DNA from: Octopus vulgaris | Taxonomy: Eukaryota | Assembly: GCA_951406725.2 (NCBI GenBank) | Contig: OX597833.1 | Coordinates: forward strand, 10,974,001-11,038,000 | Length of the DNA: 64,000 nt | Reading direction: 5' to 3' | Part shown: in pieces, positions 1 through 57,616 of the stretch | Position numbering within the stretch: position 1 is the first letter of the stretch | How the letters are laid out: each line of letters opens with the position of its first letter | Made by a program: the position numbers and the translations under genes | The notes under the pieces: generated by a model | Seen by the model: only the letters and a program-made list of their open reading frames with translations | Told to the model about the DNA's origin: nothing | The model's database searches: none

Positions 1-1260
1 AATGAGAATTTTAATGTTAATTATTTCGATGTTAATTTTAATCTAATTACAGGTAAAACACAACCATATCATAAACTTAATGAGAACCTTAGATATATAA
101 ATGTTAATAGTAATCACCCACCATCAATTAAAAAATCGTTGATTAATAATATAAGTAAACGTATATCATTACTTTCTTATGATTTAGAGATTTTTAATAA
201 ACATGCTCCTTATTACAATGAGGCCCTTAGAGAGGCAGGTTATAATAGTATTATAAATTTTTTTATTAAAAATAAAGATAAAGATATAACTAATAATATT
301 AGAGATAAAAATATTAATAATAATTATAATAATTTTGTTAGTAATAGTGGTAATAATATTAGAAATTATAAAAATAAAAATAAAATAAATAAAAATAAGA
401 ATAAAAATAAAAATAAAATTAATAACTTTAATAATTCTTTAAATGTTAATTATAAATATAAATCTGATAATAATAATATAAATAAGATAAAGAAATATAA
501 TAACAATAATAATGACAGTTTTAGTAATAAGAAGAAGGAAAATAAGAATAAAATTTGGTTTATAGTTACTTATGGTGCTCAAGTTAAAACGAACATTATT
601 AAAGAGATTTTAGATATTATTGAACTATTTATTCGAGATAATCGTAAATATAAAAACATTTTCTCTAGTAATAATTTTGGAGTAGGTTATTCCACCACTA
701 ATAGTGTAGGTAACATTATTTCTTCTTTTAACAAATTTAAACTGAATAATTTTTATAAAAATAAAGTATATAATAATACCAATAATAAAGACAAGACACT
801 AATTAACTGTGCATGTAGAGATAAAACTAAATGTAAATAATATAATAAATGTGATACTAATGATGTAGTGTATAAATGTATAGTTACATTACATGATAAG
901 AATAATAAGAATAATAATAACTCAAACGCGATATATATAGGGTCCACTTCCTCTAAAATAAAATTAAGAATCGCACAACATATGAATTCATTTGAAAATA
1001 AAAACTTAATTAACTCCACTGGACTTAGCAAGTACATTTGGAGACTTAAATCCCAAAATATTAATAATAATTTATCTTGGAAAATAATTAGTAAAACTAA
1101 ATCATATACTATAGGAGCGAATTTTTGTTATTTATGTTCTAATGAGTTTAAGGAAATTTTATTTTATAAGCATGATAATTTACTGAATAGCTGTGATGAG
1201 CGCAAAATAAAATGCAGAAACAAGTTACTTTACTTATATAATAAATTTCTTGATAAATAA
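1..1260 (+). pseudogene. C-terminal part of the PLE RT-GIY-YIG polyprotein with one premature stop
   Basis: ORFs 139..840 and 868..1260 are in the same frame. The TAA at 838-840 corresponds to TTA in copy B. Confidence 0.85.
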
Positions 1261-3452
1261 TGATTATTTCGTAGCCTTAATTAGCTCCCTATTTGTTGTT
1301 TTATGTAATAGTATTATAAATATACCAGGTGATTTGTAGTACTTATTATATTAGTTTATTTTAGTTATTTAGGTTCTGTTTTTAATTATAGTTAGATTAT
1401 AGATGGTTGTTGATTTTATTACTAAATATTTTATTACTAAATATATTTTTAATAAATATTTAATGGTTTATTGAATATAGAGTCTGGTAAGTTACAATTT
1501 TATTTATTTTATATATTTTGTTATATTTCTATTATAACTTCGTTAAATTATAATTTTGTTATATTAATCTATTTGTATGTAATCTCATTATATTTGAAAT
1601 AGTTTTATTTAGTTGTTTATTTAATCCATATTATTTAATATAGAAGTATAGATTAGTAGATTAATATTTTAGATTTAACTTAATATTTACCTCTATTTTG
1701 TATTGTAGTATGATTATAGACATTTATATATCTATTTATTTATAATATATGTGGATGTGTGTGTATGTATATATGTGGATATGATGATGTGTGTATATAT
1801 ATATATATATATATATATATATATATGTATACATTTATTTATATGTATGTGTGTGGGTGTGTATATATTGGTGTAAGTGTATATATTGAGTATTGTATGT
1901 ATGTACATGTATGTATGAGTGTGCATATGTGTATGGGTGTAAGTGTGTGTATGTATGTGTGTATATATGTATATGAATGTATGTGTGTATGTATGTGTAT
2001 ATGTGTATGTATATGTATATGTATGTATATATGTATATATATATGTATATATATATGTATATATATATGTATGTATATTTTCTTATATATTTATGTATAC
2101 GTATGTATAGTTATACTACAAATTTTGATAAGTATTTATAGATTTGTTATGATCACTAATTTTAGCTTATAATTATAAGGGCATGGGAAAGAATTTATAG
2201 TATGTAGAGGGGTTATTATATAAATTAATTTTTATGTATTTATTAATCTTATAAGATTTTTAGAATATATTTAATAATTAGTGGTTTTTAATCATTTAAA
2301 TCATTTAATTTAATTTGTATTAAGTTTCATTTATCATAGTTATTTTATTTATAAATATTATAGTATAGAGAGATTTCATTCTTTATTTGTGAATTCATTC
2401 TTTTTACAATGATAAACCTATAATTTTCCATTCATAATCTTTAATAAACGTAGGTTCCTCGCGCGTAATGAATTCTTCAACAATATATTCTTTTTTTTGC
2501 TAATAACGTAATTCCATGAGTATTCTTATAAACGCTGTAAAAGACGTTTTTTGATTCAAAATTTTAGTTCATTGATTAAACCTCGCCAAGTTAAGTATGT
2601 ATTTATTTAAGATCTTCAAATTGTAAATTTTAATATTGTATAAGCCTTTGGAGTAATAATATTCTCCTTATGTAAATATCGCTGTTTATGTAATGATCTA
2701 ATTATCGTAAGTTTCTATATTATTAGATATTAAATTTAAGTTTATTCGTAAGATACTTTTTAGTGATAGATTTATTATTTGATAGCAAGCATACTAGGTG
2801 TATTAAGTTAGGCTTTGTATATACACGTTTTAATAGTATTAATTGTAGTTTTAAATTTATAATCAAATTAGATAAACTTTGATAAATTTAGATATGTTTC
2901 GACTATAGATTGGTCTAGGCCATGACTAATTTAATAGCATAACTTAGTTATTTCTTTAAATTTATATTAGATAATTATTCCCATTCATAATTATATTTAT
3001 AGTACTTATAGTATTTATTCGATACTATATTGCTAAGAATTGATTATTTCTAAAAGTATTTTACATAAGATTTCTGAAAGTCCGTTTAAGTTTGTTTATT
3101 TGGATTTTGAAATTAGCTATTTCATCTTTAAATATGAAAAATTAAATTTATTAGGTTTTTATTATATACAATTATTTATAGAGATTATTTTAGATCTTGA
3201 TTATAATATTTATATATATATTTTCATTGATAATTTATATATATTAGTCATTTTAAATATTTATGTAATTAGATATAGACTAATATTGATATTAGATTAT
3301 GGGTTTCCTACCTTATAAATTAAAATTAATATTTAACATTATAGTCGATTTGGATATAATCATATTTGATAATAGAGTTTATTATAAGTAAAATTATTAT
3401 ATTATATATATTATTTATATCTTAAAAATATTGATTATATTTTAGATATTTA

Positions 3453-3521
3453 AACCACCTGATGAATGACTGTAACTCGAAAATTTAAAGAAATTAACAG
3501 CCATGAAACGATCGTAGTGTT
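3453..3521 (+). ncRNA. Type I hammerhead ribozyme in the PLE 3' pseudo-LTR
   Basis: cac-CTGATGA(3459-3465)-atgactgt...acagccat-GAAAC-gatc-GTA-gtg. Stem II is 8 bp with one mismatch, stem III is the palindrome ACGATCGT, predicted cleavage after GUA (3516). Confidence 0.85.
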
Positions 3522-3836
3522 ATATTAATAATATTTTTTTAATAATTTTGTTATATATTTAAATAATATAAATTAAATAATCTTATGTATTGGCTTAGGT
3601 TTTTCATTGTATGATTTGCCTAATAGTGGTTTTATCTCTAATTTAATATAATATAATATTTTACTACAAAATTGGATTCAATCCTAAATCTGATTTTACA
3701 CTGTAAGTTTGGATTTATTCCCTAATATTTATTATTATTATATGTATGTATATATATATATATATATATATATATATATATATATATATATATATATATA
3801 TATATATATATATATATATATATACATATATATATA

Positions 3837-4710
3837 AATGCCAGGTCGAGCATCTCCTTGCTAGCGAAAGTCATGCCCCCTCAAATGATTCTGTAAACTA
3901 CGAAACAAATGGTAATCTGAAGGAGGAAGATCGGGAGAATAAGGTGGATGAGGAATTTTTCCCAACCAACCTCTTCGATCCTCTGTGGTGTGATGTTTGC
4001 ATAAGAAGAAAAGACCCCCTTTACCAAGCTACTGCTTACGACGTTTAACATTTCGATAGAAGATCCATTTTTCGTCACCAGTCACAAGTCTATCCAAAAT
4101 GGGTGAAATGAGTTCGCGAGAATGGAGAGAAGAGCAGATGTCAACTGGGCACTTGCGGTTGCTTTCGGACAATTCCTGAGGTACCCATATTCCAACTTTT
4201 GGAACCTTTCCAAGTTGCTGAAGATGACAATGAACAATTGTCTGGCTTGAAATAAGCTTTATTGCCAATTCTTCAACTAAAAATGAAGGATTTTCTTCAG
4301 GTAAGGCCTCATGGGAATTATCACTAAACTCACCTGGACGTCGTGTTCGATCCTCATCTTCTAGGCTGAAATTTCCACTTCTGAAATTTGCAAACCATCT
4401 TCTACAAGTTCTTTCATTCAAGCATTCTTTCCCATAAACCGAGTGTATGTTTCGAGTCGCTTCGTCTGCAGAGTTTTCTTTTCTTTTGTACTTATAAAGA
4501 ATTAAGTGCTTCAGATGTTCTTTGGATACTTCCACGTTAGAAAGGGTTTTAATCAAAGAAATTTTACTTTTATTATTCTGCAAAATAATATTTATTTAGT
4601 AAATATACAAATGCATAAATATCATTTTTAATTCCATTAGACATTCTAAAATATTAAATTTCATTCGATTTAAAAGAGAAAAATCGGACGGAACTTATGG
4701 GATGACCTGA
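3837..4710 (-). mobile_element. Internally deleted, truncated mariner (Tc1/mariner) transposon
   Basis: ORF 4029..4583 has the mariner HTH region (RRWFANFRSGNFSLED), WVPQEL and LVTGDEKWIFY. A shifted frame further on gives PHPPYSPDLPPSDYHLFRSLQN. The TIR-like end tcaggtcatcccataagttccgtccgattttt abuts TA at 4711-4712. Confidence 0.9.
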
Positions 4711-56612: not shown

Positions 56613-56774
56613 TATATATGTATATATATATATATATATATATATATATATATATATATATATATATATATACAATTAAGGGCTCCTAAATAAAGATGCC
56701 GAGTGCTGGGAACACAAAAAGGGGATGAATTTATCGAGAGTGAAAATCAAAAACGTTTACCGATAAATTTAACA

Positions 56775-56848
56775 ACTCGTACCGCGGTTTCTGCTTCTTT
56801 CTAGCAAAACACAGAATATGTTTGCTAAGGCTGTCTTCATCAGCGAGT
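56775..56848 (-). ncRNA. Type I hammerhead, R445 left arm
   Basis: Reverse strand actcg-CTGATGA...GAAAC-cgcg-GTA-cgagt. Confidence 0.78.
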
Positions 56849-57309
56849 CGCCTGAATTTAATCAAGGTCTGCAGCGATGTGGGGCTATATGTTAAACCCG
56901 ACTACTAGCAGATCTTAACTTTTCAAATCTCTGCGCAGACGCAAAATTTACACGGGCATGCCGGGAAGAATTTTACGAATAAATTCATCATGTAGTATGC
57001 AAATATAAACAAGGCATCTTTATTTAGGAGCCCTTAATTGTATAACCACATGAATAATATTTTTCTATATGAATAATATTTTTGTCTTATGATTAATTCG
57101 TCTTTTGTGCTGGGCACCTGGTAGTAAATAATATTACTACCCTTCTTGTTTATATTCGCATACTACATGATGAATTTATTCGTAAAATTCTTCCCGGCAT
57201 GCCCGTGTAAATTTTGCGTCTGCGTAGAGATTTGAAAAGTTAAGATCTGCTAGTAGTCGGGTTTAACATATAGCCCCACATCGCTGCAGACCTCGATTAA
57301 ATTCAGGCG

Positions 57310-57383
57310 ACTCGCTGATGAAGCCAGCCTTAGCAAACATATTCTGTGTTTTGCTAAAAAGAAGCAGAAACCGCGGTACGAGT
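57310..57383 (+). ncRNA. Type I hammerhead, R445 right arm
   Basis: actcg-CTGATGA-agcc...ttagcaaa/tttgctaa hairpin...gca-GAAAC-cgcg-GTA-cgagt. Stem I is 5 bp, stem III is the palindrome ACCGCGGT, and the base of stem II is weak. Confidence 0.8.
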
Positions 57384-57616
57384 TGTTAAATTTATCGGTA
57401 AACGTTTTTGATTTTCACTCTCGATAAATTCATCCCCTTTTTGTGTTCCCAGCACTCGGCATCTTTATTTAGGAGCCCTTAATTGTATAACCACATGAAT
57501 AATATTTTTCTATATGAATAATATTTTTGTCTTATGACTAATTCGTCTTTTGTGCTGGGCACCTGGTAGTAATAATATTACTACCCTTCTTGTTTATATA
57601 TATATATATATATATA

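Follow-up and report, generated by a model that had tools for sequence, protein, structure and literature searches.

We analysed a stretch of 64,000 nucleotides from Octopus vulgaris (GenBank assembly GCA_951406725.2, contig OX597833.1, positions 10,974,001 to 11,038,000 of the forward strand; in the following, the window). It contains Penelope-like elements (PLEs) together with insertions of four families of short non-coding tandem units, R361, R430, R445 and R474, with one type I hammerhead ribozyme motif per unit. These four families are probably non-LTR (long terminal repeat) retrozymes which are copied in trans by a Penelope-like reverse transcriptase (RT)/endonuclease. The case is built on the anatomy of their insertions, many of which consist of two back-to-back arms ending at two fixed sites, as do short PLE copies of the same genome.

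An earlier note, made from the sequence alone, had reported 13 hammerhead motifs in five families embedded in (TA)n runs. A motif scan recovered all 13, and the arm 3' ends of every element adjoin (TA)n or TA-rich runs, which make up 2.7% of the window. The families are five by sequence, yet they represent four lineages only, the unit at 54.2 kb (R430) being a sister of R445 (the monomers are about 63% identical across their length). Nor are the 13 motifs independent. The window is a set of segmental duplicates, and the two long copies of one PLE (PLE-a; 98% identity, flanks included) are a single insertion inside a segmental duplication. Thus, the 13 motifs trace to about six insertion events. 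Two of them have a G5A core (CTAATGA; +37114 and -43438) and are likely dead. What had been overlooked is a head-to-head two-arm structure, present in each non-coding element. The elements are as follows (A and B are the arm 3' end sites described below; pLTR, pseudo-LTR; ORF, open reading frame; core positions from the motif scan):

1..3745, plus strand: PLE-a copy 1, a Hydra-type PLE entering from upstream, segmental duplicate of copy 2; the ORF, 1-1260, is broken and includes GIY-YIG; an intron is predicted at 2595-3445; the core is at +3459, its cut being predicted to follow 3516; (TA)n 3749-3824 flanks the 3' end, which is at site B.
7790..8503: R361 two-arm insertion; arms 7790-8100 (minus strand, ending at site B) and 8102-8503 (plus strand, ending at site A); cores -8046 and +8294, both U3.G8.
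21069..21370: short PLE-related insertion of two arms (ends B and A) that has no hammerhead; it lies in a TA run paralogous to the R361 site (read from sequence).
31354..37400, plus strand: PLE-a copy 2; 5'-truncated upstream pLTR 31354-32437 with core +31754 (cleavage register: palindrome, then UA); several stops interrupt the ORF (about 32440-34915); the 3' region is AT-rich; a GT...AG intron is predicted at 36250-37100; core +37114 is G5A; the element stops at site B and is followed by (TA)n.
40808..42796: R474 two-arm insertion; arms 40808-41827 (minus strand, ending at a minor site about 70 nt beyond the cut) and 41821-42796 (plus strand, site B); all four cores are intact, -40969, -41442, +42006 and +42480.
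43352..43511, minus strand: short PLE-a fragment with core -43438 (G5A), in the third paralog of the R361 TA run.
54179..54484: R430; arms 54179-54223 (minus strand, site B) and 54224-54484 (plus strand, minor site); the core, +54362, is canonical.
56670..57595: R445 two-arm insertion; arms about 56670-57013 (minus strand, site A) and 57013-57595 (plus strand, site B); one core in each, -56843 and +57315.

One paralogous TA run, present in three segmental duplicates, has taken up three insertions, R361 (7790), the two-arm PLE-related piece (21069) and the PLE-a ribozyme fragment (43352).

Among the 13 cores, nine are C3, two are U3.G8 (R361) and two G5A. Stem III is palindromic or near-palindromic in all of them. 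A strict hammerhead descriptor recovered 6 of the 13 motifs in the window and none in each of 20 block shuffles. The Rfam comparison suggested in the earlier note gave a single match, Hammerhead_1 at 54356-54432, with 24.2 bits under the gathering score of 34; all others were microsatellite noise. Further CTGATGA motifs at +9999, +45131, -23192 and +51930 were rejected as hammerheads because stems I and III are missing.

Copies and insertion anatomy of the non-coding families

The monomers measure 361-362 nt (R361), 430 nt (R430), 445 nt (R445) and 474 nt (R474). They are non-coding, with longest ATG frames of 25-49 aa, and have no LTR structure; primer-binding site and polypurine tract were not searched for. 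Exact matches to the ribozyme motifs are spread over many contigs of the genome (R474, 195; R361, 319; R445, 137; R430, 93), and reversed motifs gave no match for any of the four families. R474 is missing from two paralogous sites, so the family has moved. From 700-1750 first-look candidates per family, 350 loci were merged into 265 places, and arms were mapped in 262 of these.

Untranslated-region fragments of coding PLEs, a possibility raised in the earlier note, were not seen among the sampled places. A PLE-protein match was present at 2 of the 265 places, both times >500 nt outside the element, and none of the four monomers occurred in any of 20 PLE loci of 10 kb. Upstream of each unit lies another unit or the arm junction, and the 5' ends are spread over the monomer. 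Short PLE fragments of this genome also look two-armed, and the places examined are a part of the candidates; even so, it is very improbable that the units derive from the termini of longer coding PLEs outside the sample.

Two arms were found at 150 of the 262 mapped places, all head-to-head. Tail-to-tail pairs within a gap of 60 nt were absent from the mapped places. The arm 3' ends fell at one of two sites, termed A and B, in 366 of 412 cases, the site windows spanning 7-13% of the monomer. Counted in nt past the ribozyme cut, A/B lie at about 135/229 in R474, 178/222 in R361, 110/222 in R445 and 105-114/200 in R430, i.e. both sites are 100-230 nt past the cut with an A-to-B spacing of 45-110 nt. 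When both ends of an insertion were at A or B, one was at A and one at B in 119 of 122 insertions, compared with about 61 expected if they were independent (p about 6e-32; by family 34/35, 43/44, 20/20 and 22/23). A further 28 two-arm places had one end elsewhere. A TA run of at least 8 nt stood beside 350 of 377 A/B ends versus 598 of 5300 random positions (11%). The element ends have an overlap of 0-7 TA-like nt, and the arms are mostly joined by an overlap of few nt or by filler. By eye, a CCCT-like motif seems common to the sequences before the ends. In a single case (L033, about 1165-1180), some 10 nt that match the site-B end of a PLE stand between an R361 arm and the TA run; this junction is possibly a template switch from PLE RNA.

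A local origin of the arrays has to be weighed at this point. A route by solo pLTRs and unequal crossover was discussed by Li et al. 2026 (bioRxiv 10.64898/2026.07.22.740005). In L063, L339 and L061 variants are common to subsets of units, as local duplication would give, and each R unit has a 3' splice-site-like YAG directly before the ribozyme, like PLE pLTRs. However, local expansion would not recreate one monomer period at unlinked sites, and the families occupy hundreds of dispersed places with one period and fixed outer ends at (TA)n. Moreover, both inverted arms are multimeric and have private variants in common. That the units are solo pLTRs left by PLE insertions and expanded locally by unequal crossover is therefore hardly credible; the two-arm, fixed-end pattern argues against satellite-type expansion as source of the arrays.

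Related elements were noticed in passing. An old PLE in L189 contains, on the minus strand at about 2240-2630, an inserted relative of R361 (345 nt, 58% identity); its core is C3-G8, and it ends at (TA)n. In the flanks of the sampled loci a further 36 types of hammerhead motif were noted, all with a palindromic stem III; some are variants of the studied families. The first TA run was 80-250 nt past the cut in 20 of 35, compared with 16% of random positions.

Penelope-like elements with Hydra-clade motifs in the octopus genome

The PLE-a ORFs of the window are broken by stops. A GIY-YIG domain was detected in the window copy; a Pfam scan of the window did not detect the PLE RT. A genome search with the RT stretch of the window yielded 7911 candidates, of which 150 were scored. 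PLE-b is a sister family, about 91% alike to this stretch, with open frames of 838-862 aa. One of these natural frames, P0001, 91% alike to the RT stretch, has DKT, a CxCx5C linker and CxxC and CxH motifs; a CCHH motif is absent from it. Together with the RT followed by a C-terminal GIY-YIG, the latter detected in the window copy, and the (TA)n target, these motifs correspond to the Hydra-clade definition of Craig 2021 (PMC8557442). By its motifs, we provisionally assign the coding element of the window to the Hydra-clade PLEs. Elements of this clade target (TA)n, and Hydra-1_Obim from Octopus bimaculoides is one of them (PMC8557442). The likeness comprises DKT, CxCx5C, the lack of CCHH, CxxC/CxH around conserved E and N, the hammerhead and (TA)n. 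The octopus unit differs in its length of about 6 kb, described Hydra elements being generally <3 kb, and in having an extended AT-rich 3' region, an Asn-rich ORF insert and an intron of 0.85-1.8 kb that ends beside the ribozyme. At the RWK position P0001 has KWK; the aligned homologs have RWK or RWR in eight of nine cases and RWA in one. Two PLE protein homologs were named from Octopus bimaculoides and Argonauta hians. Among solved structures P0001 had no relative.

PLEs are known for intron retention. Exact ribozyme motifs in the genome number 1546 for PLE-a and 505 for PLE-b, and in both a GT-AG intron ends directly before the hammerhead (36250-37100 and 2595-3445 in the window; also 5606-7421 in L175). 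Counted by eye, the intron was absent from 16 of 25 ribozyme contexts of PLE-a and 16 of 30 of PLE-b. These spliced copies (32 of 55 sampled contexts; L431-L490) are short and often two-armed, and they stop about 15-25 nt upstream of the splice junction at a common 5' end, the likely RNA start. Their structure indicates that the intron-less copies derive from spliced, uncleaved, linear RNA. The PLE 3' end sites are 101/184 nt past the cut in PLE-b and about 140/220 in PLE-a (PLE-a values as listed are 3 nt too large). Short two-arm copies paired A with B in 6/6 cases of PLE-b and 4/4 of PLE-a; two further PLE-a junction calls were dropped as simple-repeat artefacts.

Thus, the ends of the R units match the two-site 'tail' of PLEs, and the R families are likely parasites copied by Penelope enzymes. 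This bears out the helper/parasite relation which the earlier note had proposed: the units are non-coding, dispersed and have the same end signature as the PLEs of this genome. The two-arm, two-site anatomy is direct structural evidence for mobilisation in trans, and we have little doubt that a PLE moves the R families. The window PLE is broken; PLE-b, with its open frames, is a candidate helper. Octopus genomes also hold (TA)n-targeting Naiad PLEs (PMC8557442).

The PLE RT is reported to start at two adjacent internal sites; both strands are cut and extended, and a dimer is predicted (Frangieh 2024, PMC11167929). In vitro the start site was alike on both strands, and the assay as described did not pair the two strands of single products (PMC11167929). 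One-end tails and inverted arms are also known for PLEs (Craig 2021, PMC8557442). Compared with these endonuclease-containing (EN+) PLEs, the signature is seen here on non-coding units, the tails are 45-110 nt rather than 30-40 nt, and the one-A-one-B pairing was counted (119/122). The 0-7 nt of TA-like overlap at the R-family ends differs from the in vitro PLE start site, which is non-homologous.

The RNA template

Divergence within an arm, between arms and between insertions was 0.24, 0.22 and 2.30% in R474, 0.85, 0.83 and 2.01% in R361 and 0.59, 0.97 and 2.38% in R445. Units of one insertion, across both arms, were 2-10 times more alike than units of different insertions (R430: 6 pairs only), and the partner arm was among the closest 10% in 39 of 54 insertions. 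In 20 multi-unit insertions examined, a unit-specific variant occupied the same register on the two arms of L408 and of L409, and a two-unit alternation was seen in L207 and L408; the subset variants of L063, L339 and L061 mentioned above are compatible with local duplication. Arms were up to 4377 nt long, about 10 units, and crossed up to 10 cut sites. Their 5' ends did not pile up at the cut (14 of 412 within 10 nt, 19.6 expected) and were near uniform.

Both arms have their RNA-sense 3' ends outward, as follows from cDNA extension of both break ends. The near-obligate A and B are most simply explained by one RNA which offers two different sites to two enzymes, and on balance we favour one RNA serving both arms. 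Private variants in common and multi-unit arms together make a circle the likeliest template, with linear multimers being possible; a circular template appears somewhat more probable than a linear one.

In L1 twin priming, both break ends prime cDNA, giving an inverted arm. Such priming on one linear RNA was rejected because the R-family B arm has no stop at A (8 of 110 site-B arms near A, 10.8 expected); unlike in twin priming, both arms usually overlap the same sequence. Spliced R-family copies were not found in 292 contexts. In L083 an 88-nt stretch of R430 (monomer 261-348) with GTATGT, a branch-point-like CTAAC and, directly ahead of the ribozyme, YAG resembles the short Penelope pLTR intron; none of 40 contexts was a spliced copy of it.

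The same PLE machinery might act on linear read-through transcripts of tandem copies, the ribozyme being incidental and no circle involved. Possibly, two RNAs per complex would be held together by the palindromic stem III, which is present in all four families. Two equivalent RNAs alone do not account for A and B in 119 of 122 insertions, however. Transcripts of one young array would have private variants in common as well, yet arms of 7-10 near-identical units exceed the length of most sampled loci, and the two-unit periodicity of L207 and L408 counts against a linear template. As spliced linear PLE RNAs yield A+B two-arm copies which read through the uncut ribozyme, and as ribozyme mutants still insert in vitro (PMC11167929), we rate the linear template as unlikely but worth consideration.

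The ribozyme core was intact in 152/157, 100/101 and 54/61 copies in a sample biased to motif-bearing copies. The R361 core was U3.G8 in 58 of 105 copies and U3-A8 in 47, with matching changes in stem I. The stem III palindrome was kept via double changes (R474, 103 versus 48 of 157; R361, 77 versus 17 of 105). As far as can be read from sequence, this covariation of stem III and core reflects ribozyme selection. PLE hammerheads have been described with U3-A8, dimer-type palindromes and low in vitro activity (Cervera and de la Pena 2014, PMC4209133). Single-strand folds of isolated motifs were significant only for R474, and PLE copies had no hammerhead fold (z +0.4 and +1.7). Whole circles had fold z-scores of -7.1 (R474), -2.9, -2.7 and -1.6 (40 shuffles).

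R474 is covered by contigs of four sequencing runs presumed to be RNA. One contig of 504 nt closes on itself (474+30); a tandem transcript or DNA would give the same. In run X6 (aligned to 41850-42320 of the window) 12 of 14 changes are T>C. X6 and a second run aligned there, X14, have loose ends and clustered A>G or T>C changes, some of which remove the GAAA core. No genomic copy among 162 has more than two of the 8 listed X6 sites. The changes likely represent A-to-I (ADAR) hyper-editing on both strands, to which inverted arms would lend themselves.

Several points weigh against our interpretation. The A/B site windows were defined after inspecting the data. Loci were chosen by best score or exact ribozyme motif, which biases the sample to young, ribozyme-bearing arms. 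In the window itself, R361 and R445 pair A with B; R474 and R430 pair B with one minor end site each. The R units have only short AT-rich matches with the PLE-a and PLE-b pLTRs and no clear common sequence. In-register sharing is rare (4 of 90 minority letters), which is expected for uniform monomer templates and lends little direct support. The 5' ends of R430 arms are marginally non-uniform (Kolmogorov-Smirnov p 0.047). Spliced linear PLE RNA yields A+B two-arm copies, so two-arm anatomy alone does not imply circles. The base of stem II has an extra A on both sides in R474 and R445 and U.U in R361; together with the U3.G8 wobble of R361 this makes the predicted ribozyme activity uncertain. 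Finally, only 1 of 9 Xenopus dimers was cleaved in vitro (Li 2026, 10.64898/2026.07.22.740005), and the ribozyme was dispensable for PLE insertion in vitro (PMC11167929).

We propose the following route for retrozymes copied in trans by a PLE. A PLE protein dimer would bind one RNA, most likely a ribozyme-made circle, mostly monomer and sometimes dimer, and cut a (TA)n run on both strands. Reverse transcription would be primed at site A by one of the broken ends and at B, 45-110 nt further 3', by the other. Growing towards the 5' side of the RNA, both cDNAs would pass the ribozyme site and make several laps round the unit, which would need strand displacement. The two cDNA ends would then be joined, usually by an overlap of few nt or filler, into an A arm and a B arm back to back.

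Other window features and relation to known systems

An insert present in the upstream pLTR of PLE-a copy 2 only (31820-32192) is presumably SINE-like, and we take 56270-56590 and 7060-7215, beside TA runs, to be LINE-like 3' fragments. Mariner/Mos1-type transposase remnants (HTH_48) adjoin TA runs at 4029-4595, 37842-38408 and about 57620-57947 (minus strand). A tandemly duplicated host gene family occupies 14728-15420, 28172-28711, 49964-50700 and 63235-64000; its exon has no Pfam match and, we assume, resembles mollusc short-chain collagen C4-like proteins. An assembly gap of 100 N lies at about 57950-58050.

Animal non-LTR retrozymes and their proposed link to the PLE RT have been published (Cervera and de la Pena 2020, PMC7229834; Li, Clavereau, Pollet 2026, bioRxiv 10.64898/2026.07.22.740005). 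The octopus families resemble them in that the tandem units do not code for protein, are poor in GC (34-45%), measure a few hundred nt, contain one type I hammerhead each and occur alongside PLEs. At 361-474 nt they are at or above the 170-400 nt of reported retrozyme RNAs. The passages available from the retrozyme papers contain no cephalopod family, inverted two-arm structure, fixed end sites or (TA)n targeting. There, the PLE link is based on co-occurrence and pLTR similarity; here, it is based on insertion ends. No paper was found on cephalopod retrozymes, these families or counted A+B pairing, in a search which left out most subscription papers, Dfam, Repbase and some supplements. The R families add new members to a known class, and the evidence on how they insert is unusually clear.

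Retrozyme movement and the origin of tandem and inverted PLE structures are both stated as open questions in the available literature. The one-A-one-B rule, common to helper and parasites, can be tested sharply in the in vitro PLE system that already exists, for which the R units supply short natural substrates (361-474 nt) and PLE-b, with open frames of 838-862 aa, a candidate helper family. Tentatively, and with somewhat less than even confidence, we extend the proposed route to PLE insertion in general: one small circular ribozyme RNA on a PLE dimer, both (TA)n break ends primed at two fixed sites and the products joined head-to-head. If true, this circle-on-dimer model would explain pseudo-LTRs, tails, inversions and intron retention. 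Circles would propagate PLEs, and spliced linear mRNA would give only short, dead two-arm copies. Retrozymes would then be PLE substrates reduced to the minimum, and this genome would contain dozens of such families.

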